Source of the DNA: an archaeon
GTDB taxonomy: Archaea; B1Sed10-29; WALL01; JAGHAM01
Length of the DNA stretch: 64,000 bases
NCBI GenBank assembly: GCA_021107635.1
Contig: JAIOSL010000038.1
Coordinates: 3,512-67,511, forward strand
Direction of reading: 5' to 3'
The first letter of the stretch is position 1. The number at the start of each line of letters is the position of its first letter. Positions 10,638 to 52,138 of this stretch are shown here, in pieces. The notes beneath the pieces are model-generated. The model ran no database searches, had not been told where the DNA came from, and worked only from the letters and a program-made list of their open reading frames with translations. A program made the position numbers and the translations under genes.

Positions 10638-10639
10638 AC

Positions 10640-20240: not shown

Positions 20241-20260
20241 GGATAGATATACTATCAATG

Positions 20261-20270
20261 CATATATAAA
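20261..20270 (-). promoter_or_regulatory. TATA-box-like element upstream of giant gene
   Basis: Minus-strand TTTATATATG centred ~26 nt upstream of ATG 20240, the spacing expected for a leaderless archaeal transcript. Confidence 0.35.
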
Positions 20271-20285
20271 GCTAATCTCATTTTT

Positions 20286-20735: not shown

Positions 20736-20756
20736 TGTTATCTCCTTATCGCATTC

Positions 20757-21404: not shown

Positions 21405-21961
21405 GTCCATGTTATCACTTCCAATTCTGCTGTAAGAGCTCGCTTGGTTCCACCATCATCAACATCAACTACAATAGGATATTTCATTGAAACAAAGTCT
21501 CTCCCGTCCATGAATTCCTGAACTGGAACATACTTACCCCAATCATCAAAAGTGGTTCCTCCTTCATAGCATACTGCTTCTGTAGTGGCATCTGAAGGAT
21601 CAAAAGAAAAGTTTTTTGATTCAAAAACATAATTTGGTGTAGATGTATCATAAGTAGTATAGTTGGTTCTGTCTATTCTCATTGCTGCATGAATACCATA
21701 ATTAGAACGAGATGTTTTGAGCAAAGGGCAAGCATAATCCTTCCAATAGTCATGATCCATGTGTTTTCTTTCACGTATTGCTCTAGATATCATGATGTTT
21801 GCACGCATTGCATTTACTCTTGAATTTTTTGCTTCATATACGTTGTAAGTGACTGTGACTGCTCCAAAAAACAGCATTAGTCCTAACAGTATTGGGAACA
21901 TTGCGGGAAAATCATCCCCTATTGGACCGATATACCCTTTTTTCATGTTTAACACAATCAT
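21401..21961 (-). CDS. Pilin-like protein
   Basis: 186 aa; MIVLNMKKG-YIGPIGDDFPAMFPILLGLMLFFGAVTV; ATGA overlap with upstream gene. Confidence 0.4.
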   Translation of the reverse strand: MIVLNMKKGYIGPIGDDFPAMFPILLGLMLFFGAVTVTYNVYEAKNSRVNAMRANIMISRAIRERKHMDHDYWKDYACPLLKTSRSNYGIHAAMRIDRTNYTTYDTSTPNYVFESKNFSFDPSDATTEAVCYEGGTTFDDWGKYVPVQEFMDGRDFVSMKYPIVVDVDDGGTKRALTAELEVITWT

Positions 21962-22668
21962 TTACAATCGATAGGAATATCTGCTGGATCAAGGAAACAA
22001 CACTCAATAAGTCTATCCATTGATTCTTTAGCATTAGTATCTAATTTTTTCTTGCTTGCGATGCAAAGCACGGGACCGTCTCTATAAAAGAGCAAACCGT
22101 CATCTCGTTTAGACCCGTCTATGGAAGGTCTTAAAACCAGGTCTTTATCAACAGTGTCTAGGAATAATGGATAAGTAGGTATATTTGTACTAGTAAGACG
22201 TCCTTTGAACATGTGAACTTTCCGAATGTCATCTGGAGGTTGACTGGGAAGTTCTAGTGCAACTGCTGCAACAAATTGTTCTATGTCATTGATTTCATCA
22301 TTGGCATAAGCATCTTCTGCTGGTTGTCCTGTTTCCCACGTAAGAAGGAATACGATTCTTTCAGAAGATGGAGACCCCTGATGAGTGATGCCTGCAGTAT
22401 AACTTCTTATTTGAGTACTTTTGCCTGTACCTCCACTAATCATAATTTTGTTTTCTATTGGCAAGATAATGCTTCCGGAGGGAAACATGACTACTGAGTT
22501 AGCTGATTCGGCCCATAGCATAATTACTGCTCGAGCATTATCTTCAATTACTCTTTCTTGATATATGCTCAACACTCCAGTTAATACTACTACAAGTCCT
22601 AACAAGAATACCATTAGAACAGTCTTTGACATAACCCACATTCCGAGACCGCGTTTAGCTTGAATCAT
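21958..22668 (-). CDS. Pilin-like protein
   Basis: ATG 22668 gives ATGA overlap with upstream stop; MIQAKRG-LGMWVMSKTVLMVFLLGLVVVLTGV. Confidence 0.4.
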   Translation of the reverse strand: MIQAKRGLGMWVMSKTVLMVFLLGLVVVLTGVLSIYQERVIEDNARAVIMLWAESANSVVMFPSGSIILPIENKIMISGGTGKSTQIRSYTAGITHQGSPSSERIVFLLTWETGQPAEDAYANDEINDIEQFVAAVALELPSQPPDDIRKVHMFKGRLTSTNIPTYPLFLDTVDKDLVLRPSIDGSKRDDGLLFYRDGPVLCIASKKKLDTNAKESMDRLIECCFLDPADIPIDCK

Positions 22669-23267
22669 GTGCATTCACTTAAAGTCCCATAACAACAAAT
22701 TCTGAACTTGTTTGCAGTGCCAGTAGAATCTTTGAGAAAAACTAGAGAGTAGGATTTAGGTTCTGTTAAGTTAAGGCCAAACATGCGTTCTCCGCCAGAA
22801 GTCATTTCAATATTCCTATAACCTCTGTCAGTATCAAGCATGGGAGCAGGACATCCTCTAGTATCTAGAGTCAAACCCATTGGAATTCTAACACATACTG
22901 GTTGTCCAACAACACTAGCAAATCCATCTTGTTCCCCTTCCGCAACAATTATTCTACATGAACCTACATTACAAAATTTAATGCAATCTTCTGCTCTAGG
23001 ATTACGTATTGTAATATTTTTTGTCATTACACTGCCACAGGAAAGATCTCCAAAGTTTAGGTTAATCATAGTTGCGTTTCCGGTTAAACCGGTTGCTATT
23101 TCTATTTCACTAGCAAATCTTTGCATGTTTGATTGAATTTTGTTTTCACATTGCAATCTGTCATAATTAGTGTACATTTGTGCAATTATTGGAAGTAGTA
23201 GCGCTAGCATTGCTGCTGCAAGAAATAGAGCAAAAGGTCCTTCTTCTTGTCCTTTAGTCCCGAACAT
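22665..23267 (-). CDS. Pilin-like protein, Cys-rich
   Basis: 200 aa; MFGTKGQ-EEGPFALFLAAAMLALLLPIIA; 10 Cys in the globular part. Confidence 0.5.
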   Translation of the reverse strand: MFGTKGQEEGPFALFLAAAMLALLLPIIAQMYTNYDRLQCENKIQSNMQRFASEIEIATGLTGNATMINLNFGDLSCGSVMTKNITIRNPRAEDCIKFCNVGSCRIIVAEGEQDGFASVVGQPVCVRIPMGLTLDTRGCPAPMLDTDRGYRNIEMTSGGERMFGLNLTEPKSYSLVFLKDSTGTANKFRICCYGTLSECT

Positions 23268-23325
23268 ATGAGAGAATACGATAAACTAGGTTATAAATGT
23301 TATCTGGAGGAAGATTACGGTATTA

Positions 23326-23454
23326 TTAGAAGCCCATGCCAAAAGATGCTGATTGAAACATAGGCTTGATAACACTTACTAAGAGAATAATGGCGATGGC
23401 AGCCAGTATCAAAAGGTAGATGGGCGTCCAGTTGACATCACCTTTAGAGTTCAC
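23326..23454 (-). CDS. Unlisted 42-aa ORF: mini pilin-like/single-TM protein
   Basis: GTG start; MNSKG-DVNWTPIYLLILAAIAIILLVSVIKPMFQSASFGMGF*; below the 60-aa ORF-track cutoff; fills the only gap in the pilin gene run. Confidence 0.3.
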   Translation of the reverse strand: MNSKGDVNWTPIYLLILAAIAIILLVSVIKPMFQSASFGMGF

Positions 23455-23463
23455 TTAAACACC

Positions 23464-23943
23464 TTATGCGTTAACGTTAAAACCAATGATATACTTTCCA
23501 TTATTGTTGTATACTCTGATTTTTCCGCTTACATCCTTAGTTGCAGTAATCACCATTGGATTATCAGCATCACCACAAGAACCAGTTAAATCAAAGAATA
23601 TGCTAGTGAAGTTATAACCAGCTGGGCAGGAAGCTAGGTCACCTGGAGTTAAAGTACCATTACAGAAACAAACGGTTCCTTGGTTGACTCCTGCTTGGTC
23701 AGCTATACCTGAAGTGGACATGACATCTCCTTTAACAAATTGTACATTTTGAGGAGATACTGTTCCAGAGCCTCTGGCCTGTTTTACTGAAGAAATGCTT
23801 TGAGTTATTACGTGCATTGGTTCTCCTACAGGCACAATAAAGCCTTGGAGCATTCCAAGAATTATTACTAGAATGGTTCCTGCTACTACAGCAGCAATCA
23901 AAAGTTTAAAAGCATCAAAAGCTTGTCCTTTTTCATTAAACAT
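23464..23943 (-). CDS. Pilin-like protein (candidate major pilin)
   Basis: 159 aa; MFNEKGQ-AFDAFKLLIAAVVAGTILVIILGML; GAGGT SD ~9 nt upstream and own TATA-like CTTTTTAAAC; 4 Cys near C-terminus. Confidence 0.55.
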   Translation of the reverse strand: MFNEKGQAFDAFKLLIAAVVAGTILVIILGMLQGFIVPVGEPMHVITQSISSVKQARGSGTVSPQNVQFVKGDVMSTSGIADQAGVNQGTVCFCNGTLTPGDLASCPAGYNFTSIFFDLTGSCGDADNPMVITATKDVSGKIRVYNNNGKYIIGFNVNA

Positions 23944-23998
23944 GGGGTATTACCTCAAAATAAACTACAGAAAAGAGGTTTAAAAAGGTTTCTGTTAT

Positions 23999-24448
23999 TT
24001 ACCAGTTGGCAGGAGAACATTCTTCTTTATCAATGTAAACTCTACACTCTCCCAAATCGTCACATGAGGAACAAACTTTTACTTCGTATCCTTTAGTCAA
24101 AGAAATAAACGTGCAACCATTGCCAGGAAGAGCACAACCAGGAAATTCACAGAATGCTGCATCACAAAATATTTTTACATTAGTTGAGGGGGGTATGCCT
24201 GATTTTATTATAAGGCTATCAGAACTGAAATCTTGATTTTTAAGCCAGGCTGTTTTAACAAAAGAGTGTCCTGTACCTCTTGCATTATACGCACTTTTTA
24301 GGACATCAGAGCTGATGGTTTGCACATCAGTGCCATGAGTGATGTAAGTAATCCATTGAACAACACCCCACAAAATTGCTAAAAAAGCCATTGCGAAGAC
24401 AGCACCTTGTAATAGCTTAAACACTGAAGAGTATTGTCCTCGATTCAT
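23999..24448 (-). CDS. Pilin-like protein, Cys-rich
   Basis: 149 aa; MNRGQ-YSSVFKLLQGAVFAMAFLAILWGVV; 8 Cys in the last ~60 aa. Confidence 0.5.
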   Translation of the reverse strand: MNRGQYSSVFKLLQGAVFAMAFLAILWGVVQWITYITHGTDVQTISSDVLKSAYNARGTGHSFVKTAWLKNQDFSSDSLIIKSGIPPSTNVKIFCDAAFCEFPGCALPGNGCTFISLTKGYEVKVCSSCDDLGECRVYIDKEECSPANW

Positions 24449-26544
24449 GCTTGCACCATTTTCAAGGAAAAGAACGCTACTATAAAGAAAATCATCATTG
24501 CTATTGGTAATGCTTTTGAAATACTAATTTTGAAAGCTAAGTCGTTCTCTCCTTCTGTGACTTGAGATGCAAAATACATTAAAATTGTCACTATTTGAAC
24601 CATGTATATTACAATCACTAAGAATAAAATGTTCTGGTCAAAGACAGGACCTCCTTCAGCTCCCCCAAACATGCTTCCAACACTGGTAAGAGGAGCAGCT
24701 AAGCCACCGACCCCTCCAGGTATTGACCCAGAAGAAGCAGGCATTTGACCTGAAACAGAACCTAAAGCATTACTTATTACTCTTTGAAGAGCTACAGTAA
24801 TTCCAAGTACTGAAGGCGCTATGAGCGTGCTCATGACGCTCATCATGCTTGTGATATCTTCTAGCATTCCTTTCAATGATCTTTCTACTTTTTGAGAGTC
24901 TTGTAATTGAAATGAAAGTGAAACTAACGATCTGGCTGCTGTTTGAACGCCTAGAGTTAATGATTCTACAACTATTTGCATGGTTCCTCTTATAAAGTCT
25001 GATGGCACGTACCTCAATGAACCATATGCTTTGTCAAACAAAGCCATTTTGAGTGTCATGCCCATTACTGTGATGTTTTGAAGTGTAGGAATGAATATTT
25101 TTTTGGTAACTGGTGAATTAGGAAGAAAGTCAGCTGTATGTTTGAGAGCTTCTTCCATGGGTTTGCCTTCTCCTAACCGTGATGCAAGAATGTATAAAGT
25201 GTCTTGAAAATCATTCTCCATTTTAACTAGTTCTAATTGGGCGTGACGTTTGTCTTTGTTGTTTGCCCAGAGATAAAAACAGATTGCAAAGACTATTCCA
25301 AGAGACCATCCCATGTATTCTATTAAAGGCATGTATGCGTCTACTTGTTCTGTTTGCCATGCTGGAGGCATTGGATTGACTATTGGATTGAATATGTACC
25401 CTGCTATTATTGTTGCAGCCATGATAGCTAAAGAAACAACAATCACGGGCAACTGATACTTGCCTATTTGGAACCATCCTCGTTTTGGGAGCCCAGGCAG
25501 GTTATCAGGAATTTTTGGTATTGGCCTGGCAGGGGGTCTTTTTCCTAGAATAGACTTGGCCATTATTAGAGCAATCAATGGAATGATAATGTTGTAGATT
25601 AGTATTAATGCGACTGGAGATCCAAGAAAACCCATTGACTCTGATGCCATCATTGAACCAACAGGAATTACAATGATTAGTAGTAGAGGAAGCAGAACAC
25701 CGAGATAGTATAGGTATATGGAAGGCTGATGCATTGCACGAGAATACATGTCCATTTTGTCTTTGATTCCTTGTAAGGCATCAGTTACTGCTTTGTCCAA
25801 GAGTTCATTGCGTTTGCCTTCATCTACTTCCATTACTGAAGAACGAATCAGCATGAGCGCGTGTTTGAATTCTTCTGAATATTCTCCCCATTTCCATGCC
25901 ATGTAATCGAGTGCTTCTTCTACTGTTCTGTATTTTCCTATGTGAATATCATAGCGTAGCTTGCGAAAGTCTTTTGCTACCCTGCCATGTCCATGATCTG
26001 CTGCAAATTTGATTGATCGTTCTAGATTGGGAGAGACTTTCATTGCCATGACGATATAGTTTATGATTTCAGGAATGTATCCAAGAGATTTTATTTTTTC
26101 TTTTTCTGCTGCTTTGAACGGATAAATTTGAATGTAGTAGCCTAGACCAAATGCTACTGCGAAAGGTACAAGATAAAGGATCATAGACATTCCTGACAGA
26201 GGATGACCAATTAGAGTGGTTCCACTCCATATAATCGGTTGTGATAGGATGTATTTGAGCAGGTAGTTGAGTAAAGCCCATCCAAAGGCTAGGACAAATC
26301 CTATGACCATGACAAACATTGGCGCAGAATTAAATTCTTGTGGAGTGAGATTCCAATCAAGAAAAGCTAGCGTGACTTCATATTTAGGATCTATTTCTTT
26401 TTTAGCGTTTTTCCCGAAGTATTTGTGCGAAAACTTACAGAGTTTAACATACCAGTGTTCTTTTTGGTCTATCCCATCCAGTTTATGTTTTCCTCCGCCA
26501 AACACGGCATCAAAAAAGGCTTTACTGCTGTTTTGCTTCTTCAC
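24445..26544 (-). CDS. FlaJ/PilC-like platform protein with two T2SSF-like domains (fused form)
   Basis: 699 aa; two helical domains (IINYIVMAMKVSPNLERSIKFAA..; DTLYILASRLGEGKPMEEALKHTA..), each followed by TM bundles; overlaps the end of the ATPase gene. Confidence 0.7.
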   Translation of the reverse strand: MKKQNSSKAFFDAVFGGGKHKLDGIDQKEHWYVKLCKFSHKYFGKNAKKEIDPKYEVTLAFLDWNLTPQEFNSAPMFVMVIGFVLAFGWALLNYLLKYILSQPIIWSGTTLIGHPLSGMSMILYLVPFAVAFGLGYYIQIYPFKAAEKEKIKSLGYIPEIINYIVMAMKVSPNLERSIKFAADHGHGRVAKDFRKLRYDIHIGKYRTVEEALDYMAWKWGEYSEEFKHALMLIRSSVMEVDEGKRNELLDKAVTDALQGIKDKMDMYSRAMHQPSIYLYYLGVLLPLLLIIVIPVGSMMASESMGFLGSPVALILIYNIIIPLIALIMAKSILGKRPPARPIPKIPDNLPGLPKRGWFQIGKYQLPVIVVSLAIMAATIIAGYIFNPIVNPMPPAWQTEQVDAYMPLIEYMGWSLGIVFAICFYLWANNKDKRHAQLELVKMENDFQDTLYILASRLGEGKPMEEALKHTADFLPNSPVTKKIFIPTLQNITVMGMTLKMALFDKAYGSLRYVPSDFIRGTMQIVVESLTLGVQTAARSLVSLSFQLQDSQKVERSLKGMLEDITSMMSVMSTLIAPSVLGITVALQRVISNALGSVSGQMPASSGSIPGGVGGLAAPLTSVGSMFGGAEGGPVFDQNILFLVIVIYMVQIVTILMYFASQVTEGENDLAFKISISKALPIAMMIFFIVAFFSLKMVQA

Positions 26545-28810
26545 TTGCCTTCCTCCTTGATAAAAGCTCTTTCAGTAATTGATTTTCTACCCAATTTGTC
26601 CACTCGTTGTATACTTTGTCGTATACTACGCTTCCATGTTCTCTTCTGCTCTGTTCTTGGAATAATAAATACATGTCATTGGCTCGCACGCTATTCACTG
26701 CTTCCAAAAGTTCTGGAATTTTGTGCGTGTTTTTTAGATCCACCAAGTGTTGTTTGCTTTTGCCTCTGTACGTTATGTCTGTCCAAATAGTATCAATGTC
26801 CATTCCACGCATTTTACGTATTTTTTTAAAGAATTCAGAATCTTCATACAACGTGTTTTTGTGAATAGTATGCTTGTCTTTTGTTGCATCGTAGGTAACA
26901 AGATCAATCAACCCGCCTTCTTTTTGAGGATCTTCATACCAATGCTTTCCTATTTCAGTAATTTCAATAAGCCTTCTCGCACGCCTTATTGAACCTTTGA
27001 AACGAATAGGCGCAGAAGTAACACACATGTCTGTAGCTTTAAATGAAGTGTTTGGCACGCCCAGATCATTCACTACCCTATCCCAAATAGAATAAGCATT
27101 CTCTCCGTGAATAGTACCCATAACAACGTTTCCTACTGCACCAACGCGCATTGCTTCATATAGTACTAAGGCTTCTCTGCTCCTGACTTCACCCATTATG
27201 AGTACGGATTCTCCAAGCCTGAGCGCGGTTCTGAGTGCGTCTTCTGGACTGACTTCTGATGCGACTGCTCCTACTGAGATTGAGGATCTTGTTTTTAGTC
27301 TGCAGATGTTGTAGCCGATTTTGCGCATTTGTTCGACTGGAATTTCTAGTGTGTCTTCTATTGTAATGATTCTTTGTGAGCGTAGGATTTCAAGCATGAG
27401 TGACATCAGCATTGAGGTTTTGCCTGAGCCTCTGCTTCCGACGACTAGCGTGGATGCTTGGGCATCCAAGAGGAATGAGAGTAGTCCTGCTACGTCTGAG
27501 GGAAACATGTTCACGTCTATGAATTGGGGGATAGTCCATGGAGTGGATTTGTGGATTCTTAGAGCAAAACCAATGCCATCCGGTGATAATGGTTTGCCGA
27601 TGGTTGCTGTTCTAGTATGATATTCTTGTAAGTCGAAGTCTATGACTGGATGTGCTTCATCGAATGGCCTGCCGCTCATTGAACGGAACCGGGATACAAT
27701 GCTTTCTGCTTCTTCGTTTGAGAAAATGACGTTGGTTTGACAAGGTCCGTATTCACTGTGTACTATGTACACTGGTTTGTATCCTAGTGGTGCATCTAGG
27801 TATACGTCAGTAAGTTTTTCGTCTGAAAGCAACAAGCCCATGATGCCAAAGCCTATGGTATACCTTACTACAATGCTTGCTAGTGCACTTACTTCTTCTG
27901 GTGAAAGAGCTATCTTGTTTTCTCTTGCTATGTCGTTTATTGTTGTTTCATAGATTTTTTTGAAATATTCTTTGCTTGTAGCTAAATCAGTGAACTCTAG
28001 TCCTTCTGGATGGTATCCGCTTACTATTTCTTTGGTTTTGGACATGAGAAAATAGTGTTCTGGGCTGAGAGCGTACTCTGGCGGATCCAGGTAATACAAG
28101 TATTCTATTTTTTCTGGATGTTTGTAAATGCTTATGTTTGTGTCTTTTACTTTGTACTGGTCAAGCAATTCTATTTCTTTCGGAAGGTCAAAAGAGATTC
28201 TTGAACCGATAAAAGAAGGTTTTAATTGTGCTTCAAACATGCTCCTGTAAAATCCTCTGCCTGGTGGCACTGTCTTAAGTTTACGAATATAGCTTTTTAG
28301 TTCTTGAATTAGTTCGGTAGATTCCAGGTTAGCGCGTAGGAATTCTAGTGTTTGAATGTACTTTTCTGTGCAGTGCTTGTATTCTGGTTGGATTATTCCA
28401 AGCTTGGCTTTTTCTAGTTCAATTGCTTCCAAGCATTTTATGTAAGAGCGTATTGGGTCTGTGCGTAGTAGGTTGCTTGCTATGTCTACTACAATGCCTC
28501 TGCGTTTTGGTAGGAATCTAGAGCATTTTTCTCCGCCTAGTAAGGAGGGTGCCCAGACTGCTGCTGCTTTAAATTTGTTGACTAGGCCTGCAATTTCTTT
28601 TAGCATTAAAGTTTGTTTTTCATCGTATACTCTTTCGTATACGTCAGAAAGAATTATTCGATCTACTTCACCAGTGGTCAGAAATTCTACAACTTGTGCC
28701 ATTCTTTGTGGATAATCTGCTATGCTTGGGCCGTGAGGAGAGTCGCTGCAGTCAATTGTCAAGTATCTTTTTCCGCCCTTGTTGACTACTTTAACTTTGT
28801 CACTAGCCAT
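26522..28810 (-). CDS. FlaI/PilB-type secretion ATPase with long N-terminal extension
   Basis: ATG 28810 (MASDKVKV..; TTG 28825 alt); Walker A GSRGSGKTS (27423-27449), Walker B SVLIMGEVRSREA, His box GNVVMGTIHGENA. Confidence 0.85.
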   Translation of the reverse strand: MASDKVKVVNKGGKRYLTIDCSDSPHGPSIADYPQRMAQVVEFLTTGEVDRIILSDVYERVYDEKQTLMLKEIAGLVNKFKAAAVWAPSLLGGEKCSRFLPKRRGIVVDIASNLLRTDPIRSYIKCLEAIELEKAKLGIIQPEYKHCTEKYIQTLEFLRANLESTELIQELKSYIRKLKTVPPGRGFYRSMFEAQLKPSFIGSRISFDLPKEIELLDQYKVKDTNISIYKHPEKIEYLYYLDPPEYALSPEHYFLMSKTKEIVSGYHPEGLEFTDLATSKEYFKKIYETTINDIARENKIALSPEEVSALASIVVRYTIGFGIMGLLLSDEKLTDVYLDAPLGYKPVYIVHSEYGPCQTNVIFSNEEAESIVSRFRSMSGRPFDEAHPVIDFDLQEYHTRTATIGKPLSPDGIGFALRIHKSTPWTIPQFIDVNMFPSDVAGLLSFLLDAQASTLVVGSRGSGKTSMLMSLMLEILRSQRIITIEDTLEIPVEQMRKIGYNICRLKTRSSISVGAVASEVSPEDALRTALRLGESVLIMGEVRSREALVLYEAMRVGAVGNVVMGTIHGENAYSIWDRVVNDLGVPNTSFKATDMCVTSAPIRFKGSIRRARRLIEITEIGKHWYEDPQKEGGLIDLVTYDATKDKHTIHKNTLYEDSEFFKKIRKMRGMDIDTIWTDITYRGKSKQHLVDLKNTHKIPELLEAVNSVRANDMYLLFQEQSRREHGSVVYDKVYNEWTNWVENQLLKELLSRRKASEEAKQQ

Positions 28811-28854
28811 GAATAAAAAACGCAAGAGTTTTATTTATAGGTGATGGTAGCCTG

Positions 28855-30591
28855 CTAGGAACAAGTAGCACTTCCTGGACTACCACTACAAGTCGTTCCT
28901 TCAACTAGACAAACAGTAGCGTTATAGCAAACGCACTTATCACTTCCGGTGCATGTACTGTCTTCTCCAGTGTTGATTTTTGTATTAAGAACTGCACTTG
29001 GATTAGTGACATCACATCGTGGTATTGAACCACTTGATTCACAGAATGCATATAGTGAACCTTCACAGAGTCCTCCTGGCAAAACAGAACAATCTGTGCA
29101 TGTGTGTGGAACGAATTCAGTTCCACATCCTGTTTCATTTGTGCATCCACACCATTTTCCATTTAGAGTGTCACAATCTGTTTGTTTCTCAAAACAAGAA
29201 CAGCTTGTGGCACAATCAACAAGGCCACCTATAGGAGGATCGCTTGATCTGTTTAATACTTGAGTATTGCCTGTGCCGCATTTTGTTTGAGCTACAGGTT
29301 CTTCACAAACTGCTAGTAAATGCCCTGCAGCGGAATCACAATGACTGAATGTTCCACCGAGAGTACAGCCAGTAGTACAATCGCCGTTTCCAAAAGTTGC
29401 ATCACAATAGCCTCCTTGACCTTCACAGTCTATTGTAGTGTAACAAGTGCAAAGTTCTGTTCCAATGCAACCAAAAACATCATCTCGAGTATCTGGCTTT
29501 GTCTTTAGGACTCCGCTTTCACATTCAGGAAGAGATGCACCAGAATCTGTTTTACACTGTGCACCTTTGCCAACTGTTGCTCCTTTACCAGTTACATCAT
29601 ATGCATAGTAATCACTACAAGCTATATCTGGAGTACAGTTAAATGAGAAGCCTGCTGCACATTCGGGCTTCAAATCATCAAGCACAAATTTAAGAGGACG
29701 CCGTTTCAGTTCAACCTTAAAACCGGAAAGTTGGTCTTCACAACAAAGATCCATCCCATCACTCAAATCGTTTCTGCAAGTAGGTTTATGGAATAGATTA
29801 GAACCACATTTAGTTGTGTCAGTAGAAACCCAAGTATCAACAAGCAGGTCAATATCATCACAATCATTTCTAGTATCCTCACAACAATGAAACTGTCCAT
29901 CTGTACACTTCTGATTATCAGCAAGATCATACCAATAAACATCAGCCCATTCGTAACGATAACATCCGCCTCCACACCATGCCCGATTCCATTTCATATA
30001 TGCTTTGAATTTTTCAATATAAACTTCAACACCATCAGGCAATGATGCAGTAAATAAGATATAATTACCACCACACCAAGCCCAACTTTGGTCAGTCATA
30101 CTTCCAGTAATACTCATACTCATAAGATCTTTTGAAGTATCTGGTTGTATTGTTCCCACTGTACTGGAAAGTTCATATGGATTGCCTAAAGCGTCTTCTA
30201 CTTCAACTACAATATGCCAAGGAGGATCTCTGCCAGTAACCATTGTTTGAACGTTCTCAACTAAGAATAGACCGTCCTCATCCAAAGTTGTTACTGTTTC
30301 AGTTCCCTCTATAGTAACTATGACTGTAGCTCCATTAATGATTCCAACTCCTTCTCTTCCATCAATTAAATCAGGATCACACACAAAACCAAGCACATCA
30401 AAATGCGTGAAATCAATATCTCTTATTGCAATATTTACTTTAGGACCTGCAGTATCCTTAGCAATATAAACAGTAATATTGGCTTGTCCTTCCTCATCAC
30501 CATCTGCAGCTGAAACTAAAGGACTGTCACCTAAAAAAAGCATTCCTGCTACAACCAACAAAACCAAAAAAGCAACGAACCACGCTCTCAT
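28855..30591 (-). CDS. Cysteine-rich secreted protein (578 aa), unknown
   Basis: ATG 30591 gives signal peptide MRAWFVAFLVLLVVAGMLFLGDSPLVSA-ADG; C-terminal two thirds packed with Cys (..CCEDTRNDCDD.., ..CTCYTTIDCEGQGGYCD..); first gene of the minus-strand block. Confidence 0.75.
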   Translation of the reverse strand: MRAWFVAFLVLLVVAGMLFLGDSPLVSAADGDEEGQANITVYIAKDTAGPKVNIAIRDIDFTHFDVLGFVCDPDLIDGREGVGIINGATVIVTIEGTETVTTLDEDGLFLVENVQTMVTGRDPPWHIVVEVEDALGNPYELSSTVGTIQPDTSKDLMSMSITGSMTDQSWAWCGGNYILFTASLPDGVEVYIEKFKAYMKWNRAWCGGGCYRYEWADVYWYDLADNQKCTDGQFHCCEDTRNDCDDIDLLVDTWVSTDTTKCGSNLFHKPTCRNDLSDGMDLCCEDQLSGFKVELKRRPLKFVLDDLKPECAAGFSFNCTPDIACSDYYAYDVTGKGATVGKGAQCKTDSGASLPECESGVLKTKPDTRDDVFGCIGTELCTCYTTIDCEGQGGYCDATFGNGDCTTGCTLGGTFSHCDSAAGHLLAVCEEPVAQTKCGTGNTQVLNRSSDPPIGGLVDCATSCSCFEKQTDCDTLNGKWCGCTNETGCGTEFVPHTCTDCSVLPGGLCEGSLYAFCESSGSIPRCDVTNPSAVLNTKINTGEDSTCTGSDKCVCYNATVCLVEGTTCSGSPGSATCS

Positions 30592-30614
30592 GACATAGCT
30601 ATAATCAAATCTTC

Positions 30615-30623
30615 TATAAAAAA
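30615..30623 (-). promoter_or_regulatory. TATA-box-like element in divergent intergenic region
   Basis: Plus TATAAAAAA = minus TTTTTTATA, ~24-27 nt upstream of ATG 30591 (leaderless spacing); a second TATA-like GTTAAATAT (30638-30646) faces the plus-strand gene. Confidence 0.35.
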
Positions 30624-30655
30624 CCGACCCTGGAAAGGTTAAATATGATTCATGC

Positions 30656-31180
30656 ATGAAGAAAAAAACAATGCAATCCAATAACCTAACCAAAGCAGTA
30701 AAATTCACACCCACTTTGATGATAGTTGGAATCATAACATACCTAGCATTTTCACTCGTAATGACTTCATTGCAATCATTCACAGCATTGACTTCAAGCT
30801 TAATTCTTTTCTTGTTTGGAATAAACTCAATAGTGATTGGTACTGCACTAACAGGGATTTTTTCAATGCCAGTAGAAGTAGCTCCTCTATGCGTTGGAGA
30901 CTTGGAAATAGCGGTGCTGGTTGGTGCTATTGCTGCAACAGAAGACAGAACTCACAGAGAACGCTTACTAGGAATAATAAGTGGAATTGCCTTTGTGCTT
31001 TTTTTGAATCCAATAAGGATAGCAATGACCATTGCAGCAGGAGTATGGTGGGGTTTTCAAACAATGGATTTTATTCATTCAATCTTGTTCAGAATAACTC
31101 TTGTGACAGTAATCATTGGCTTTTATGTTCTCTGGTACTTAGGCTGGCCATCAATAAAGCGTAAGCTTAAAAAGCATTAA
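30656..31180 (+). CDS. Exosortase/archaeosortase-family protein, short form (candidate)
   Basis: 174 aa, ~5 TM; PLC79VGD, then ~39 aa, then LNPIR121I, then DFIH141S reproduces the Cys / N-x-x-R / His order and spacing of the exosortase-archaeosortase core; ATG 30671 is an alt start. Confidence 0.5.
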   Translation: MKKKTMQSNNLTKAVKFTPTLMIVGIITYLAFSLVMTSLQSFTALTSSLILFLFGINSIVIGTALTGIFSMPVEVAPLCVGDLEIAVLVGAIAATEDRTHRERLLGIISGIAFVLFLNPIRIAMTIAAGVWWGFQTMDFIHSILFRITLVTVIIGFYVLWYLGWPSIKRKLKKH

Positions 31181-31196: not shown

Positions 31197-33428
31197 ATGA
31201 AACGGGGGTTTAGTATATTTACTCCGATGGTGGGGACTATTTTAATCACTATTGCACTTCTTATTGTAGCATCCATACTACAAAGTGAAAGATTTGCTGT
31301 TGCTGGAACACTACAAAGCTACCAAAGCATCAAAATAGCAAATGTGATGAGAGAAGCCAAAAGCAGAATAGAAGAAGAACTTAGAACTAGCGTATTCGAA
31401 AAAGCGATGACTTCAAGAGTATGGATTAACAACTGTTATGAAGATGGAATAGTAACTGATTATTATGCTGGAACAAAATGCGAAAGGGTTATGACCGATG
31501 GAGCACTCACAGAACTAGAAACAAAAATAGCAGATTTATTGACCAAAGAAACCATGACGTCAGTGACAAACAGGTTTGAAACCGCCTACAAGTCAGAAGA
31601 CATAACACTTGAATTCAATCCTGAATTAGAAACAGGAGGAAAATATGAGGGAAATCTTTCAAAAATTTTGGTGAAACCAATAGAATTTCCGCCAGAACTT
31701 AAGGGAAGAGCTAGAATAACCCTTAATTTTAGCAAACTAGTTGACAAGGATACAGGAGAACGAATCGCCATTGCAACACTAAAAACAGAAACCATCTCAA
31801 TGAAAATATACTTAGACCCAACAGTAAAAGTGTTTGAAAGTCCCGACCCTATCAACAGTTATTCAAAAGAACTTGGAAAAGCATTCCAAGGATTCACACT
31901 AATGAACAAAGACTGGCATGAAGTTGGAGACTTAACAATGGCAGAGTACACTGGCAGTTATGGGAAGATAACTGCAGGTGTGAGCGCCCATGGAGATGGA
32001 AGCAAATGGTATCACTATGCGTATGCACTTCAAGCAAGACAGCCCAAAAAGAATAATGATGGAAGAGGACCTGGATATATCACAACAGGCTGGCAAAAAG
32101 GAACTGAGTGGGAAGAAGGACATGGATTTAGATATACCAACAACATCAAAGAACCAATAGTAATCCATGATAAAATAAGCAACCTCATGAGCAAAATAAA
32201 ATCAACCGCGATTACGCCGTTTATTGGAGACACTAGCACACCAATAGATTCTACATGTCAAATAGACATAATGAAAAAATCCGAGATGACAAAACTAAGC
32301 AAATATTTATACCAAGACCAGATATCTGGAGCTAATCCCAAAAAGGTAGAAGAATACTTTGTGGCAGGATACCTAAAACATGAAAATGATGAATTATATT
32401 TAATGAACAGCTATTACCCTACAAAAAAATTCATTGAAGATGTATATACTAAGTATACTGGAAATTGTGACGCAAATAGCGTAGCAGATCCTAACAATTA
32501 TGACATTATTCCTGGTGGACATATAACCCCAACTGCTAGTCCAGTAGACAATTGGCTCCCAACAGGAAAACCATGTGCAGATGGTACTTTAGGCGCATCC
32601 AATGCAAATGATGCTACCTTTGAAGACTGGGCACTTTACTTAAGAAACAGAGATCCTACAGATGGGGGAGCTAAAGATTTGACGGTTGTAAACACAATAG
32701 AAAAATACGATGACAAGTACGTTCCAACTGGTCTTAAAAAAACAGTAGATGACATTACAAATCACATTAAAAGCACCACAGAAGTCAAAGCAGCCATGGG
32801 TTATGGAACAGCAGATACAGTCAAATATAAAATAAATGTAACAAGCTATCAATTCTATGCAATAAACACAAACATAACTGGAGGAAACAATTGGCAATGC
32901 GGAGAATTCATGGCATATTACGTTCCACAATTTTCATTTACAGGAGTAACCTGCGCGAGTGATTTAGTAAACTACATTGGAGGGCTAACTAGTGAAAAAG
33001 ATGCGTTCTTCCTCTCACTACCATTGAATTACACATGTCCAACATTCACAATGGTAGCTGTGAAAGAAGAAATGGACCTTTTCAGAAACAACAAAACCCA
33101 TCCTGGAGAAATAATACATCCAGTTTATCATGTTACATTTACCAGAAGAAAAGCAGATTATAGTAAGGGACCTGCAGAAAATAACGTGCCAACAACAGAA
33201 TTATGGGAAGGCAGCCAACTAGACAAAACAGATGACGCATTCGCAGACAGATTCTTCCAACAAACTGAAACACTCCTAACAAATGACGTCAACAACAACT
33301 ACCGAACTAATATGACTGTAAGAAAATGCATTTACACCTATGAAACAGGGCAACCAGGAGCAGAAATATTTGGTGGGAGCTGTACTTGGCTGGCAAACAA
33401 TCCAGAAAGCTCAGAGTACATAAAATAA
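31197..33428 (+). CDS. Very large pilin-like protein (743 aa)
   Basis: MKRG-FSIFTPMVGTILITIALLIVASIL class III signal-like N-terminus followed by a ~700-aa hydrophilic domain. Confidence 0.5.
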   Translation: MKRGFSIFTPMVGTILITIALLIVASILQSERFAVAGTLQSYQSIKIANVMREAKSRIEEELRTSVFEKAMTSRVWINNCYEDGIVTDYYAGTKCERVMTDGALTELETKIADLLTKETMTSVTNRFETAYKSEDITLEFNPELETGGKYEGNLSKILVKPIEFPPELKGRARITLNFSKLVDKDTGERIAIATLKTETISMKIYLDPTVKVFESPDPINSYSKELGKAFQGFTLMNKDWHEVGDLTMAEYTGSYGKITAGVSAHGDGSKWYHYAYALQARQPKKNNDGRGPGYITTGWQKGTEWEEGHGFRYTNNIKEPIVIHDKISNLMSKIKSTAITPFIGDTSTPIDSTCQIDIMKKSEMTKLSKYLYQDQISGANPKKVEEYFVAGYLKHENDELYLMNSYYPTKKFIEDVYTKYTGNCDANSVADPNNYDIIPGGHITPTASPVDNWLPTGKPCADGTLGASNANDATFEDWALYLRNRDPTDGGAKDLTVVNTIEKYDDKYVPTGLKKTVDDITNHIKSTTEVKAAMGYGTADTVKYKINVTSYQFYAINTNITGGNNWQCGEFMAYYVPQFSFTGVTCASDLVNYIGGLTSEKDAFFLSLPLNYTCPTFTMVAVKEEMDLFRNNKTHPGEIIHPVYHVTFTRRKADYSKGPAENNVPTTELWEGSQLDKTDDAFADRFFQQTETLLTNDVNNNYRTNMTVRKCIYTYETGQPGAEIFGGSCTWLANNPESSEYIK

Positions 33429-33469: not shown

Positions 33470-36400
33470 ATGGGACTTGACGAAACATACGCAAAACTTG
33501 AAGACAAATACTACGCGTTCTTAGACGGACTCGAAAAGAAAGGCATACCAATATACAGCATAGTTGACCCAATCGAGCACGCAGGCATACCATCACTTCC
33601 ACTGTTTGTGGGATTGGTAATACTTCTAATAGGACTAGCATGGTATTACATGATGCCATCAGTTGGAGGAATGCAAGACGTAACCTTTGTAATAACCTCA
33701 CAAGCTGACGGAAAATTCCTGGACGGAGCAACAATAACAGCTAAACTTGAAGGAAACGAAATAGCAACAGCAACAACCATTCAAGGTCAAGCCACACTCA
33801 GAAACGTTCCCTCAGATTCAGAAATAGACTTAATAATAAACAAGCCCGGCTGCACAGAATATCGAACAACAGTAACCCCCTCTCTAAAAAATGAACTTAA
33901 AATCAGCATGCAGTGCGGAGGCGGAGGAGGTCTAGAAGGATGTCTTGAAATCTCAAGCGACATGGAACAAACATTCCTAAAAGACGAAAACGGCAACCCT
34001 CCAGAATCATGCGAAATAAGAATCTATGACCCAATAGATCCACTTACCACAATAAACCATGGATGGCTAATCGTAGATGGTGCTCTTTATGTAGACGATA
34101 TAACAGAAGCCACATGCCCCTCAAACATCAACGCACACAAAGTTGAAATCACATGCAAAAACAGCAAATATGAAAGCACAGTATCCGCACTTTTAGATAA
34201 AATAAAAACAGAAAACGAACTCATACTAGAAACAATATCCATTGAACCAACACAACAAAATGCCACCTCAGACGTGCTAAGAGAAATAATCGTACACATA
34301 GAATCAATGGACGGCAATCCACTAGAAGGCATTATAGTAAAAGCAGTAAACGCAGAAGCCGAACCAATAACAAGCGAATTCAGCAACGTTATTCTAGAAT
34401 ACACAACAGGAAGCACAGGCAACACCCAACTAATAATCCCAGATGGACAAGCTTTTTACATTGCAGTAGAAGATCCAAAAGGAGTCTACAGAAACAAAGT
34501 TGGAGAAACCGAATATATTGCAAGCCTTGAGATGATAACCAGAGAAATCAACCTTCAAATGTCAAAAGGAGCAGGCACAATAGTCACAGTCAAAGAAAGC
34601 GGAACCCAAGACCCAATAACCAGTGCAATGGTAACAATCATCGACTCCAGCGGAAAACATGCAGGATTCCCACAAAGAACAAACTCAAAAGGAGAAGCCA
34701 GCTTTGTCCTATACAAAGGCAAAGAGTATAGCCTAGAAGTAAGACATGCAATGTACGAACCGATTAACCAAACCGTTACCGGAGGAACAGATATCACAGT
34801 ATTCCTAGAAACAGTAGACCCAACAAAAACAGGAAGCCTAGCAATTAAAACCATTAAAGCACACGGAGCAAAAGACAGGCTAGGAGGAGTAAGAATCAAA
34901 CTAATCAAAAATGGAAAAACATACACTGAAACAACAACAAGCTCTTCCGGGGAAGCCTACTTAACAGGCATACTCGCAGGAAGTTACACTCTCAAACTTT
35001 TGCCGCCAGGAGCAACAAACTATCAAGAAGGACCCACAGTAGACATTCAACCACAAAACACAACAGAAATAACCATTGAAGTCATACCAGAACAGATAAC
35101 CCTGGAACTAACAACACTAGTAAGAATAAACGGAAAAGACATCCCAAAGAAAAACGTTGAAGTACAACTATGGGACGCATACTACGAAGAACGAATAGAA
35201 ACCAAAACCTCAGGAATAGAACGCAAAGTTACATTCCAAATAGACAAATGCACAGAAGTATACTTTGTTCTAGCATACACAGAAACAGAAGAACCAAACG
35301 CAGGCAAAAAATACGGTCCACTAACAAGCACCCCAGAAGAATACTGCACAAACAAAGAAATCAAAGACCTAATCCTCAAAGAAAAACCAGACCAAACAGA
35401 ACTAAACCTAGACATATTCACACAAACAGGAGAAATAGAAGAAGAACTAATCCCAGGAACACACTATAACGCAAAACTTTCAGTTGCACTACCAGAATAC
35501 ACTCCAAACGTAATATACAAACAAATAACAGTAGAACTCTTTGTAGGCAATGACGGATACCTAGCAAGAACAGACCAAACACCACTAGTAATAGAAGACA
35601 TAGACCTAACAGACATATCCGTACAAGACCCATACATCACATCCCTACACACAGCAGATGAATACCACTATGGAGAACCAACACCACCAGAAAACGAAGA
35701 AGGAAACAGCAAATACCTAAAAGTAACCATTGGCAAATACACTCCAGGAACATACGAACTAAGCATACCCATTTATGTAAGAAGCCTAGCAGAACAAGGA
35801 AACACAATAATCAGCTACCGAGCAACCTGGATGAAACCAGACGGAGGACTAGTCTACTCACAAAGCGGAAACTGGGACGAAAAAAACATAACAATACTAC
35901 CCCCAAGCAGCTCAAACTACCACGAACTAGAAACAGGCTCCTTTTATGCATACAAAGCATGGCTCACAGCAACCAAAAGCCCAGAACCAATCCTGAACAC
36001 ATCAATAACAAAAAACGCATACTTCTACCTACACATCGACGCAATAACAAGAGACGACATCGCAGCATGGGAAGTACCACTCACAACAATACCAGACATA
36101 GCAGAAATGATAACATATGACGGAACAGTATACAGAGCAAGCGGAATGACCACAGAAATAGCCGCAACCAACATCACAGGCGACACACTAACCAACGACA
36201 ACAATATCTACAACCTCGAAAAAGACGACAAAGTAAGCCTTACAATAACACTAAAAGCAATAGGACCAGGAAAAGCATCCCTGATAACATTCAACGACAT
36301 AAGACACACACTCAGCTTCGCAGTCTCAGAAATACCAGCACTACAAAAAGAAACACTCATATCCGGAATCACAGCAACACTACAAGCACAAGCACACTTC

Positions 36401-39400
36401 ACAGGAGGAGAAGAACAATACGCAGAAAACCACTGGGGCACATTTGACATAGAAGAAGAAACCATCCCAACAAACAACAAAAAATTCAAACTAACCTTCC
36501 AATTCCAAAACACTGACACCATTGCAAAAACAGGAAAAATGATACTAGACGCAAAAGACAAAAGCCTAAGCTTCACAGGAGTAACCCAAAACGGAGCATT
36601 CTCAACAGGCACTCAAACCTACATACAAGACATAGAATTTGAAATACCTCCAGACGGAAGCGAAGTAATCATAGAAGGAACAGGCACCACCCAAACCACA
36701 AACGACATGGACATCTACATCTACGAACTAGGCACACTCAGACCCAAAGAACCATGGACTTCCATCCAATACGGCAGAATAGACTACACAGCAAGCATAA
36801 AAACATACAAAGAAGGCGGCCTACTACAAGAACCAAGCCAAGGAGCAGACGAAATCAGAGTATGGGCATACAAAGAACACGACGGAACAGAAAGCAATCT
36901 AGAAGGAGGAACAATCACTGGAGACCAAGTACAACTAGCATATCCAGGCACCAACCCAGTAGCCTACCTAAAAGAAGACCAATACTACCAACACATGATA
37001 GCCTGGGACAAACCCCTAAAAGAAACACTAAAAGCAACCCTTCTAAGCGACAAATTCGGTAAAATAATAATAGAAAAAGACGTCTCCTACCTAACATTCA
37101 ACCCAAACCCAGGAAGCGCAATAAAAACATTCACAGGAGTCTCACTCAACCCACCACAAACCAAAAGCAAAGAAATAACCCTCACAAGCTACTACGACAA
37201 AGCCATAGGAATAAACATCGGCAAAATAGAACGCATTGGATGGGAAATAACAATTAAAGCCACCACAAGAATGAAAGAAAGCGAAATATCAGGAAGTTAC
37301 GTAGACAAAGAAACCAGAGAAAACCCCTCAAGCATGATGATACCATCAAGAGGCCAACTAATAATAGAAGTCACCGCCACACCAACATCTACAGAATGCA
37401 GAGGAGAAGACTGGTACAACGGAAACGAACTCCTAGAAATAGAAGTAGACGAACTCAAAGAACCAATAGTCTATGCATTTACCCTCGACTGCACCATCCA
37501 AGGTACACCAGACATAGGCTTCCCAGGAGAACAAACATACATAGTCAGATCAGACGTAAACCCATCAAGCATAACTCACTATGACTGTTTCAACAACACG
37601 CACGAAAACCAAAAAGAAACAGCATACATCTGCGACGCAGAACAACTAGGCGCAGCACTGCTTGATGGAGCTCAAAACTTATACAGCGACCCATACACAT
37701 ACGAAACAACATTTAATTATGCACTAGGAAAAGACCGCCTAGACTACAACGTTCTATCAAAAGTACTTGAAAAACATGCAAACAGATGGACAATGGACCA
37801 CGTATACTCAAGAGAATCACTAGCAAAAGAAACAGACACCATGGACATAATTCTAGAAGATAGTATTGAATGTGGAATAACCAAAGTAAAACTAGAAAAA
37901 GTCAATTTTGACCAAGACATAAAAATCACAGTACTCAACACAGAAAATAAAGGACGCTGGTGCGAAAACACAGGTCAATCCTATATGATAGGACTACTAA
38001 ACTATGACCAAAACATTAGACCAGACAATGGACAATACTACTCCTTTGAAGGCACACAAGCAGAACGCATTCCAAAAGCAATACAATACGCTCAAACCAA
38101 AGGAAACAACATAACAATTTCCAGCCTACTAGCATACGACGCTACAGGAATAGAACCATCATCAATTGGACTCTCTCCTACTCGACTAGGAGGAACACCC
38201 CAAACATTCCTAAAATACATGGACTGTGAAATGCACGATACAACACAATGCCCAACATTCGCAATAAACGAATTCACAGGACTAAGAAAAGAATGTGAAA
38301 CAGACGGAGACTGCGGAGACCAGAATTGTATTAATGGCATATGTGCCACACCCTGTTCAGATAACACTGAATGCACAACCGGAGAAACATGCAACGGAGA
38401 ATACTGCATAACCAACGAACAAGTAACCGGAAAAGACACATCAGAAGAAGCACTAAAAGACGCATACCCAATAATAGGCTACTTCGACATAGACACCAAA
38501 GACAACATAAACCTAGGACTAATCTATGACCAAAGCAGAATAACAACAGAACAACTAGACCAATACAGAGCACTCTTCATGACAAGAATAACCCAATACG
38601 CAACCACTGGAATCGAACAAGGACAAGAAACAGCATACGGATGGTACAGCGGCTCAACAAACACCAGAATGATCTACGTTCCAACACTAGACACACACAA
38701 AGATGAAACAATAGACCTAAGCTCAATGGACATAAACGTCTACATATACTACTACGAATACAATGAAGAAGAAGACCCAATCAAAAACACTAAAATAGCA
38801 GGAGACAACAACATCTTCGTAACAATCGAAATGAATGAAAGGCCACAATACTGCATGATTGGCGACCTAATGCCCAATGGCACGATACTCTACAAAGAAC
38901 CAGAAACATCTCAAAAAGACGAAGTAGTAGACAACCCCGATCTAAGAAGACCCTATGCAATCAACAGCGAATGGGAACTACTAGGAAAAGACGGAAGAAA
39001 ACGAGTAGCAGCATACTGCGTAGACCAAAAAGGAATCACATCCAAAATTGCAATAGCAGAAATAAGACTAGACACAAGCGGCGTTGAATTCGCAAGCAGA
39101 AAACCAGAAAGAATAGCAATGTACAAACCCATGCTATTCAAAGACAACATGCCCTTCCTAGTAAGAAGCAAATACGCAGACGTCACACAATGCTGGATAA
39201 GTCTCAAAGGCAGCCCAACAGAAGGAGAAACAGACTATGAACCAAACAGACCCAGAGATGGATCAGGAAGCCTATGCTGGAACGACAAAGATGACAACAA
39301 AGGCAACCAAAGCATTCCAGAAAAATACAGAAAAGAAGACGGATGCTGTACGATCACCAAAAAAGAAGACTCCAGCTCAGGAGAACACCACTACTTTAAC

Positions 39401-49583: not shown

Positions 49584-49681
49584 GGTGATAAAAAACGAAA
49601 ATAAATCAAAAAGGATTCCTGCCAGCCCTAGCTGGAATACCGCTAGCACTAATCGTAATAGTAACAATATTCCTATTCCTA

Positions 49682-49951: not shown

Positions 49952-49991
49952 AAAAGAAAGAATGCAAAAAATATGTAAGAGGTAGTTGGTT

Positions 49992-50231: not shown

Positions 50232-50241
50232 AGGTAAAAAA

Positions 50242-50886: not shown

Positions 50887-50925
50887 AATACCACAAAATG
50901 TATATTTATTGCATTGGGTGTGTGA

Positions 50926-51315: not shown

Positions 51316-51319
51316 GAAC

Positions 51320-52104: not shown

Positions 52105-52138
52105 AAGTTTATTAAACGGGATTGCTTTAAAGAGGTTT

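Follow-up and report, generated by a model that had tools for sequence, protein, structure and literature searches.

Location and organization of the archaeosortase-family gene

The window analyzed here is a stretch of 64,000 nucleotides (64 kb) of an archaeal contig (JAIOSL010000038.1, assembly GCA_021107635.1). Its plus strand carries, at 30656–31180, a short gene with an ATG start that encodes a minimal archaeosortase-family protein of 174 amino acids (aa), hereafter the sortase, which passed the curated cut-offs of both TIGR04178 and PF09721. What is new is a combination, read from sequence: an unnamed, minimal archaeosortase clade of DPANN archaea, set in a locus for a type IV pilus-like surface apparatus and provided with a probable dedicated substrate. 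The protein is hydrophobic over its full length and, according to the translation of the open reading frame (ORF), contains a single Cys, C79 (codon 30890–30892), in the context APLC79VGDLE. N118 (31007–31009) and R121 (31016–31018) form N118-P-I-R121-I within LNPIR121IAM, and H141 (31076–31078) lies within DFIH141SIL. The first-pass annotation had described a 174-aa protein of about five transmembrane (TM) segments with C79, R121 and H141 in these contexts, and the translation, together with the five long helices of the AlphaFold2 (AF2) model, agreed with it throughout.

The same annotation had placed the gene divergently from a pilus operon and at the head of a string of giant-protein genes, and both placements were seen. 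The divergent intergenic spacer of 64 bp (30592–30655), read directly, is AT-rich and contains TATA-like elements (TTCTATAAAAAA at 30611–30622); it is predicted to be, and probably is, a bidirectional archaeal promoter region. A 642-aa minus-strand ORF overlaps the sortase, and the real start of that gene is at 30591, giving a product of 578 aa, so that the sortase and its minus-strand neighbour do not overlap. On the plus strand, the sortase is the first gene of a string that continues, 16 bp past its stop codon (at 31197), with a gene for a 743-aa protein and then with the genes of two giants of 2877 and 2297 aa.

Family membership and conserved residues

TIGR04178, the exosortase/archaeosortase signature of NCBIfam, matched residues 73–161 of the sortase, a span that takes in C79, R121 and H141, with an E-value of 1.9e-10 and 40.9 bits against a cut-off of 23; with PF09721 (Pfam), the score was 28.3 bits against a cut-off of 25.7. 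The models of the named subfamilies all stayed below their cut-offs, namely ArtB (TIGR04144, 42.5 bits against 150), XrtH (26.4 against 86), XrtX (25 against 170) and ArtD (20.7 against 125). No match to the window sortase was obtained with the ArtA model TIGR04125 at E ≤ 10, or with the ArtE, ArtF and pacearchaeosortase models in the NCBIfam scan. The NCBI entry for an identical protein is named ‘archaeosortase/exosortase family protein [archaeon]’, so the generic family call is not itself new.

Queried with the sortase alone, a word-index homolog search gave no match other than the query. Among 1.84 billion representative proteins, an exhaustive HMMER search yielded 238 relatives at E ≤ 1e-3 (91 at E ≤ 1e-10), nearly all of them 160–200 aa long. 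Residue conservation was counted over an alignment of 139 relatives, and subfamily matches over an alignment of 61 sequences. C79, N118 and R121 were found in 139/139 relatives and H141 and W160 in 138/139, E84 was kept in 94% and R146 in 85%, with Lys at the latter position in a further 9%. Cys, Arg and His are the triad that defines the otherwise highly divergent exosortase/archaeosortase family (bioRxiv 10.1101/2023.06.07.544157). Both Cys173 and Arg214 are essential in Haloferax ArtA (PMC9263693), and the spacing from Cys to Arg is 42 in the window sortase versus 41 in ArtA.

TIGR04178 was matched by 61/61 aligned clade members, while matches to the named subfamilies were weak and inconsistent among them (ArtD 46, XrtX 38, ArtB 30, ArtE 22, pacearchaeosortase 19). 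At the sequence level, the sortase belongs to a distinct, unnamed archaeosortase clade. The pacearchaeosortase model reached at best an E-value of 4.6e-8 among the 61 members, none of the models of the small archaeal subfamilies scored above about 21 bits with the window sortase, and the ArtA model TIGR04125 gave weak matches in 5/61. The first-pass annotation had assigned the gene to the archaeosortase family on its Cys/Arg/His pattern and had mentioned ArtA as a known member. The scores of both family models above their curated cut-offs and the near-complete conservation of the three residues, in the columns of the clade’s own alignment, support the assignment; the likeness to ArtA holds for the superfamily signature and fails for the ArtA subfamily, given the lack of a TIGR04125 match and of any PGF-type tail within the 64-kb window.

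Predicted fold and topology

The AF2 model of the sortase, computed with the 61-sequence alignment, reached a predicted local distance difference test (pLDDT) score of 94.8 and a predicted template modelling (pTM) score of 0.86. It consists of five long helices and a small beta-hairpin, with helices at residues 4–34 and 36–53, the hairpin at 59–66, and further helices at 77–94, 100–132, 134–162 and 164–173. C79 opens helix 77–94, R121 lies in the last third of helix 100–132 and H141 near the start of helix 134–162, and these positions in helices 3, 4 and 5 would turn all three residues toward one membrane face. Basic clusters occur across the family at the N-terminus (mean K+R of 5.8), in the loop 95–103 (3.1) and at the C-terminus (4.0). 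A strictly alternating five-TM topology was rejected, as it splits these clusters evenly between the two faces. All three clusters can be cytoplasmic only if helix 36–53 and the hairpin are re-entrant, and this would put the triad on the outer face. The active site of the sortase would thus face outward, the face being assigned from the charge distribution only, and such an orientation would agree with that expected for ArtA, which must act on an S-layer protein. No solved relative resembling the model was found by PDB sequence and fold searches with the sortase.

Conserved gene order in related loci

Related loci, designated by L-numbers, were collected by locus scans, with a profile of 12 sequences reduced from 61, and by contig look-ups; a metagenome scan for sortase loci gave three short contigs only. 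The hosts of the relatives are Candidatus Iainarchaeum/Diapherotrites (Iainarchaeota), ‘Nanobdellati archaeon’, Micrarchaeota and other archaeal metagenome-assembled genomes, and the named ones are DPANN. The sortase was found beside archaeal type IV pilus-like genes in 15 of the 16 loci with usable context (the window, L003–L008, L013, L016–L019 and L021–L023), down to about 30% identity; in L020, the one exception, the contig stops 1.2 kb past the sortase. As a rule, the sortase is divergent from the ATPase gene and stands first in an operon that also encodes a large pilin-like protein and giants.

The order of the window is shared by L005, L007, L008 and L022 (plus L012, of the same genome). 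In these loci one strand carries the gene of a large secreted protein, here called X, followed by a small membrane protein, six to eight pilin-like genes, a PilC-like gene and the T2SSE ATPase, and the divergent strand carries the sortase, a class-III-signal protein of about 700 aa and a giant. The visible portions of L004, L006 and L013 fit the same order. At greater distance, the ATPase and PilC-like genes were divergent from the sortase and a giant followed it in L016 (31% identity), L019 (30%) and L023 (42%), and the ATPase and PilC-like genes were likewise divergent in L018 (36%) and L021 (29%). In L017 (Micrarchaeota), the genes directly 3′ of the sortase encode two T2SSF proteins, four short Flp-like pilins and a prepilin peptidase (Peptidase_A24), and Class_IIIsignal and Peptidase_A24 matches stand in the operon of the sortase. 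The first-pass annotation had proposed that the sortase links sortase-type processing to this surface apparatus; the gene order kept in 15/16 loci speaks for the link, with the qualification that the giants of the string headed by the sortase carry no C-terminal sorting signal. In the literature searched, no report was found of an association of archaeosortase and type IV pilus genes, including for the other small archaeal sortases.

Several loci showed rearrangements or additions of their own. Relative to the window (15549–31180), the block of the pilus operon and sortase is inverted in L003 (1–15149), and the flanking X, deoxyhypusine synthase and flavin reductase keep their order around it; owing to the inversion, X comes to lie directly downstream of the sortase there, following and overlapping the sortase gene. 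The pilus ATPase ORF of L004 (4485–8402, minus strand) has 1305 aa versus about 765 aa at all other loci, and its extra length might be an intein or another insertion. Genes of toxin-antitoxin type are inserted directly after the sortase in two distant loci, with a PIN domain in L018 (10647–11214) and a nucleotidyltransferase/HEPN pair in L020 (9478–10462). P0076 (1102 aa), a protein from the HMMER search, is made up of a sortase domain and a class-III-signal protein connected by a duplicated KREQGSGMERKG.../LKRGMNSKG segment. It was discounted as a ‘Rosetta stone’ fusion, the duplicated segment pointing to a probable assembly or gene-calling artefact, and it again places the sortase beside a pilin-like gene.

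Protein X and a candidate sorting signal

Protein X (15549–20240, minus strand), encoded by the last gene of the pilin operon, has 1563 aa and is composed of a Sec signal peptide, a beta-rich body, a disordered Pro-rich linker and a tripartite C-terminal tail. The candidate sorting signal within this tail (15552–15659, minus strand) consists of the motif IPTRPE (15642–15659), the spacer ETDW, a 16-residue TM helix, TFLLYILALAGGIFLA (15582–15629), and the basic end RTRLKKRTTP (15552–15581). Within the window, a C-terminal TM helix followed by a basic cluster was found only in X and in a 239-aa protein (52028–52747), and a canonical tripartite tail was present in X only. The AF2 model of the C-terminal region of X shows a disordered linker and a tail folded into one helix.

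A Sec signal, a conserved TGRxEPPLLQPSA block, a TM helix and a Lys/Arg cluster at the extreme end were found in all eight X orthologs. The linker of about 25 aa before the motif cannot be aligned among them, whereas [IV]Px[RV]PE is kept in seven of the eight, at a distance of 0–4 residues from the TM helix. A motif adjoining the TM helix is expected for signals cut by membrane-embedded enzymes (bioRxiv 10.1101/2023.06.07.544157). When the pattern [IV]Px[RKV]P followed by a TM helix was searched over all loci, only X orthologs and one spurious ORF were returned. X is always the last gene of the pilin operon, and X-type tails co-occur with the sortase in the same locus, in the window as in related loci. 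Only 4 bp separate the sortase of L004 from the end of the preceding gene, which encodes a signal-peptide protein other than X with the tail KPDEEELDITP-TM-YRESKK, and L023 (42% sortase identity) encodes a distant X homolog with a ..NIPINK-TM-HNKGKEE tail.

The NCBIfam sorting-signal models (VPXXXP-, PGF-, PEF-CTERM and others) gave no match at E ≤ 10 to X, the giants or nine isolated tails, except for sub-threshold matches to Loki-CTERM. For X itself, no Pfam or NCBIfam domain and no PDB sequence match were found, and Foldseek with the AF2 model of its C-terminal 560 residues returned no meaningful match (template modelling scores of about 0.1). The [IV]PxRPE tail is probably a new, previously uncurated tripartite signal of RPE type. 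Its motif shares a Pro-Glu core with PEP- and PEF-CTERM.

On the strength of its tail, X is the best substrate candidate and the likely dedicated target of the sortase, and the X tails and the placement of the genes fit the description by Haft of ‘dedicated’ systems with one enzyme and one target (bioRxiv 10.1101/2023.06.07.544157). The 239-aa protein at the end of the plus-strand string (52028–52747) combines an N-terminal hydrophobic segment, a probable signal peptide, with the tail ..SFPDTGFHFELW-TM-YKNRK, and it is a weaker and only possible, secondary substrate candidate. No homolog of it was found in the related loci retrieved.

Proposed function of the sortase

The membership of the sortase in its family, the conservation of Cys79, Asn118-x-x-Arg121 and His141, the confidently predicted compact helical fold and the order of its gene with the pilus genes and giants are observations; all that goes beyond family membership and gene order we infer. 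From these observations the gene is read as that of an active, minimal intramembrane cysteine peptidase of the archaeosortase family, possibly a transpeptidase, which belongs to a pilus-tied DPANN clade and has X as its dedicated target. The probability of this reading is put at about 0.55. X would be exported by Sec, and the outward-facing sortase would recognise its tail, that is, [IV]PxRPE abutting the TM helix and then the Lys/Arg cluster. The cut would fall at the RPE motif or close to it, and, if Haloferax ArtA is a guide, a lipid anchor would probably take the place of the TM helix. Enzyme and substrate would form a ‘dedicated’ pair, one enzyme for one target, and, within an apparatus that also comprises the pilins and the giants, X would be the component tethered to the membrane.

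Several points weigh against this assignment. A distance of about 10 kb separates X from the sortase in most loci, and on the strand of the sortase it is the N-module giants described below and the pilin-like protein, rather than X, that recur most constantly beside it. X could simply be a TM-anchored protein of the pilus operon, plain C-terminal TM anchors being common in archaea, and its tail matches no curated sorting-signal model. The sortase occurs without a visible X at the Micrarchaeota-type loci L017 and L020 and at L018 and L021. The search for tails covered 64 kb of this genome, and further proteins with the same tail may be encoded elsewhere in it. Moreover, the N-terminus of the sortase is as basic as its C-terminus, so the outward topology has the standing of a proposal.

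Some of the same points would favour a different set of substrates, such as S-layer or further surface proteins whose genes lie outside the window and whose tail differs from those seen in it, in which case the sortase would stand in the pilus locus only through co-regulation of cell-surface genes. Most characterised archaeosortases serve several dispersed targets, and genomes with ArtA encode 1–52 of them (PMC6098224). The substrate scan was confined to the 64 kb of the window, no X was seen in L017, L018 and L021, and the curated small members ArtE, ArtF, XrtG and XrtM are named only ‘family protein’ in NCBIfam. Against dispersed substrates, the adjacency to type IV pilus-like genes in 15/16 loci, from 100% to about 30% identity, is hard to explain without a direct functional tie, and the tail-bearing secreted proteins that directly adjoin the sortase in L003 and L004 fit the description of a dedicated system. 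This explanation is thus held to be unlikely, although it is the best of the alternatives.

Giant proteins and their N-terminal module

The two giants of the plus strand share an N-terminal module of about 45 aa (the N-module). Giant 1 (33470–42103; 2877 aa) begins with an N-module that ends in GIPSLPL and a TM helix, followed by CarboxypepD_reg/immunoglobulin (Ig)-like domains and C-terminal Asp-rich repeats; giant 2 (42189–49082; 2297 aa) has the same N-module (GIPTFPL and TM helix). A C-terminal TM helix or basic tail was looked for in both giants, and none was present. The module is acidic, follows the pattern ..Y.k[IL]ED..Y..LD....G[IL]P[IV]Y..[IV]DP[IL]E..G[IV]Px[FL]P and abuts the TM helix, after which small residues follow (GAAP, AAPA, SVGG). 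It was located at 33470–33640 and 42189–42360 (plus strand) of the window and at L005 13487, L007 12635, L010 ~2600, L016 6585, L019 7697, L022 12760 and L023 ~11900; among the retrieved loci it occurs only beside this sortase clade, and it matched no Pfam or NCBIfam family. A canonical class-III signal with a long leader was considered for the module and rejected, as the −2 position is Ala in most copies. Residues ~2730–2869 of giant 1 (41660–42100) form Asp-rich repeats of thrombospondin type 3-like character, with a partial NF047638 match of 98 bits. An SLT lytic-transglycosylase domain is present in the giant of L016 (6585–15074); in an archaeon, such a domain would be odd, unless a bacterial or host cell wall is the target.

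These proteins offer another set of substrates. The sortase could be an enzyme of N-terminal processing or coupling for pilus-associated giant adhesins, acting on the proteins of its own operon, that is, on the giants through the N-module and/or on the large class-III-signal protein. Giants with the N-module are its most constant same-strand neighbours (window, two copies; L005, L007, L010, L016, L019, L022 and L023), and P0076 joins a sortase domain to a class-III-signal protein. The N-module also resembles exosortase-type signals in that a Pro-rich motif abuts a TM helix (bioRxiv 10.1101/2023.06.07.544157), and ArtA is able to process a tripartite signal that is not C-terminal (PMC6098224). 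However, the ectodomains of the giants carry domains of extracellular type (CarboxypepD_reg/Ig-like, thrombospondin-like, SLT), from which an N-in/C-out anchor follows. The G[IV]Px[FL]P motif would then be on the cytoplasmic side, opposite the face proposed for the active site, and the TM orientation would be the reverse of that of every known family substrate; nor does a basic cluster follow the TM helix. The duplicated segment of P0076 is probably an assembly artefact, and in L003, L017, L018 and L021 the sortase has no such giant in view. On this evidence the giants themselves are probably not sortase substrates, and processing of same-operon proteins is considered very unlikely. With the small residues after its TM helix, the N-module has more in common with an extended Sec signal peptide that serves proteins of very large size, analogous to the extended signal peptides of large autotransporters. 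It may serve giant archaeal surface proteins as such a signal peptide or as a targeting signal.

The last alternative, a degenerate or non-catalytic membrane protein whose Cys/Arg/His pattern is coincidental, could draw on a PF09721 score barely over the cut-off (28.3 versus 25.7) and on the lack of a solved structure for comparison in PDB searches, and it is effectively refuted by a TIGR04178 score 18 bits above the cut-off, by the 238 relatives with C, N and R invariant and H near-invariant in the 139-relative alignment, by the very confident fold prediction and by the conserved synteny.

Comparison with known systems

The dedicated pairing of sortase and X, the preferred reading, has partial parallels among known systems. 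The window sortase is about half the size of ArtA of Haloferax volcanii (HVO_0915), which has roughly 300 aa. Both have the superfamily signature and conserved Cys and Arg residues about 41–42 positions apart, and the window sortase is likewise predicted to be a polytopic membrane enzyme. By analogy, the expected substrate would in both cases be a Sec-exported surface protein with a motif, a TM helix and a basic tail after a flexible linker, which would likely lose the TM helix and gain a lipid anchor (PMC9263693, PMC6098224). The two differ in the motif (PGF in ArtA targets, [IV]PxRPE here), in the number of targets (many versus apparently one), in their hosts (Euryarchaeota versus DPANN) and in that the sortase described here is embedded in a type IV pilus-like locus.

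Among subfamily models, ArtB (TIGR04144) scored best and aligned end to end, residues 21–160 with model positions 9–149 of 156. ArtB is of similarly minimal size, and the candidate signal here, like VPXXXP, opens with [VI]-P and contains a further Pro. In contrast, the score was 42.5 bits versus 150, 30/61 clade members match the model at all, the Pro spacing is VPxxP here versus VPxxxP in VPXXXP-CTERM, and no VPXXXP-CTERM target was matched. Pacearchaeosortase (NF033505), heimdallarchaeosortase (NF045528), ArtD, ArtE and ArtF are likewise short, lineage-restricted archaeal members, pacearchaeosortase also being from DPANN, but clade members match the models of pacearchaeosortase, ArtD and ArtE only weakly.

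JDVT-CTERM and the myxosortase-type protease MrtJ (bioRxiv 10.1101/2023.06.07.544157) provide a parallel with one target per genome and with the genes of enzyme and target adjacent or nearby. The enzyme family is unrelated, and the genes of sortase and X adjoin only in L003, X usually lying about 10 kb off, where the divergent operon ends. In the sortase-assembled pili of Gram-positive bacteria, a Cys/Arg/His enzyme is also encoded within the pilus gene cluster; its fold is unrelated, and those pili are polymerised by the sortase itself, whereas the apparatus of the window has type IV machinery (ATPase, PilC and class-III-signal pilins) and nothing suggests pilin-to-pilin transpeptidation.

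Neighbouring pilus-type genes in the window

The minus-strand operon opposite the sortase begins with a Cys-rich secreted protein of 578 aa that faces the sortase (28855–30591), as such a protein does in the Iainarchaeota-type loci, and has homologs in L003 and L022. At three distant loci, the sortase-facing gene encodes an unrelated polytopic membrane protein of 310–400 aa (L016 4970–5908, L019 6106–7149, L021 4403–5602). The next gene (26522–28825, minus strand) encodes a type IV pilus/secretion ATPase of the T2SSE family (PF00437, 75.2 bits against a cut-off of 24.9). It is followed by a polytopic PilC/TadC-like platform protein of 699 aa (24445–26544, minus strand), for which the match to T2SSF was weak (E = 7e-4, 19.9 bits against a cut-off of 25.2) and whose orthologs, 55–68% identical, occupy the same position in all related loci. 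A 149-aa membrane protein (20286–20735) and six pilin-like genes make up the region 20286–24448 (minus strand). The N-terminal sequences of the latter are of class-III type (e.g., MFNEKGQAFDAFKLLIAAVVAG), in which KGQ, read directly, precedes a hydrophobic helix. No Pfam match was obtained for the genes of this region, and orthologous pilin-like sets were found in L003, L005, L007, L008, L012, L013 and L022.

On the plus strand, the 743-aa protein directly after the sortase (31197–33428) has a class-III, prepilin-type N-terminus, MKRGFSIFTPMVGTILITIALLIV, and orthologs in the same position in L004, L005, L007, L008, L022 and L023. With a T2SSE ATPase, a PilC-like protein and class-III-signal pilins all found, the neighbouring apparatus is classed, by its predicted components, as an archaeal type IV pilus-like system. 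The scanned ORFs of the window included no prepilin peptidase (Peptidase_A24), and one may lie elsewhere in the genome.

Altogether, three separate type IV pilus-like gene sets were observed within the 64 kb (143–8699, 9075–11898 and 20286–30591). The T2SSE ATPase of the second set (9075–11898) has a Cys-rich, ferredoxin-like N-terminus, and its orthologs in related loci match Fer4. After giant 2, a tandem run of eight small genes for predicted membrane proteins of 81–142 aa occupies 49272–52104 (plus strand). Two paralog groups were recognized among them, one of 103, 89 and 81 aa and one of 114, 129 and 121 aa, the members of the latter sharing P[AV]GG...VNP.W. No homologs of these small genes were found in the related loci retrieved, and no tRNA or Rfam features were found in the region of 48.5–52.5 kb.

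Implications for archaeosortases and DPANN archaea

Archaeosortases have been placed in a subset of Euryarchaeota (PMC6098224) and described from halophilic and methanogenic archaea (bioRxiv 10.1101/2023.06.07.544157), and the role described for them is the general anchoring of S-layer proteins and of further proteins of the cell surface (PMC6098224; bioRxiv 10.1101/2023.06.07.544157). The present finding extends this well-known paradigm, by mechanistic steps that we infer. From the clade of about 240 representative sequences, a new curated sortase subfamily could be built together with a CTERM signal model to match, and the 174-aa sortase, small and modelled with confidence, comes from a family in which PDB searches found no solved structure.

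DPANN archaea are thought to depend on physical attachment to hosts. A more far-reaching picture, which goes beyond the pairing of sortase and X and is judged quite unlikely, is that the sortase clade is an integral part of a DPANN-specific, type IV pilus-based attachment organelle, in which it would covalently tether X at the cell surface, to lipid or to another protein of the apparatus, and in which one host-contact structure would be built from X, the N-module giants and the large pilin-like protein. If this picture is true, an archaeosortase would for the first time be functionally coupled to type IV pilus machinery, and giant archaeal surface proteins would have, in the N-module, a targeting signal of a new class. 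The candidate target and its signal motif would offer a testable handle on how uncultivated DPANN cells build their contact surface.

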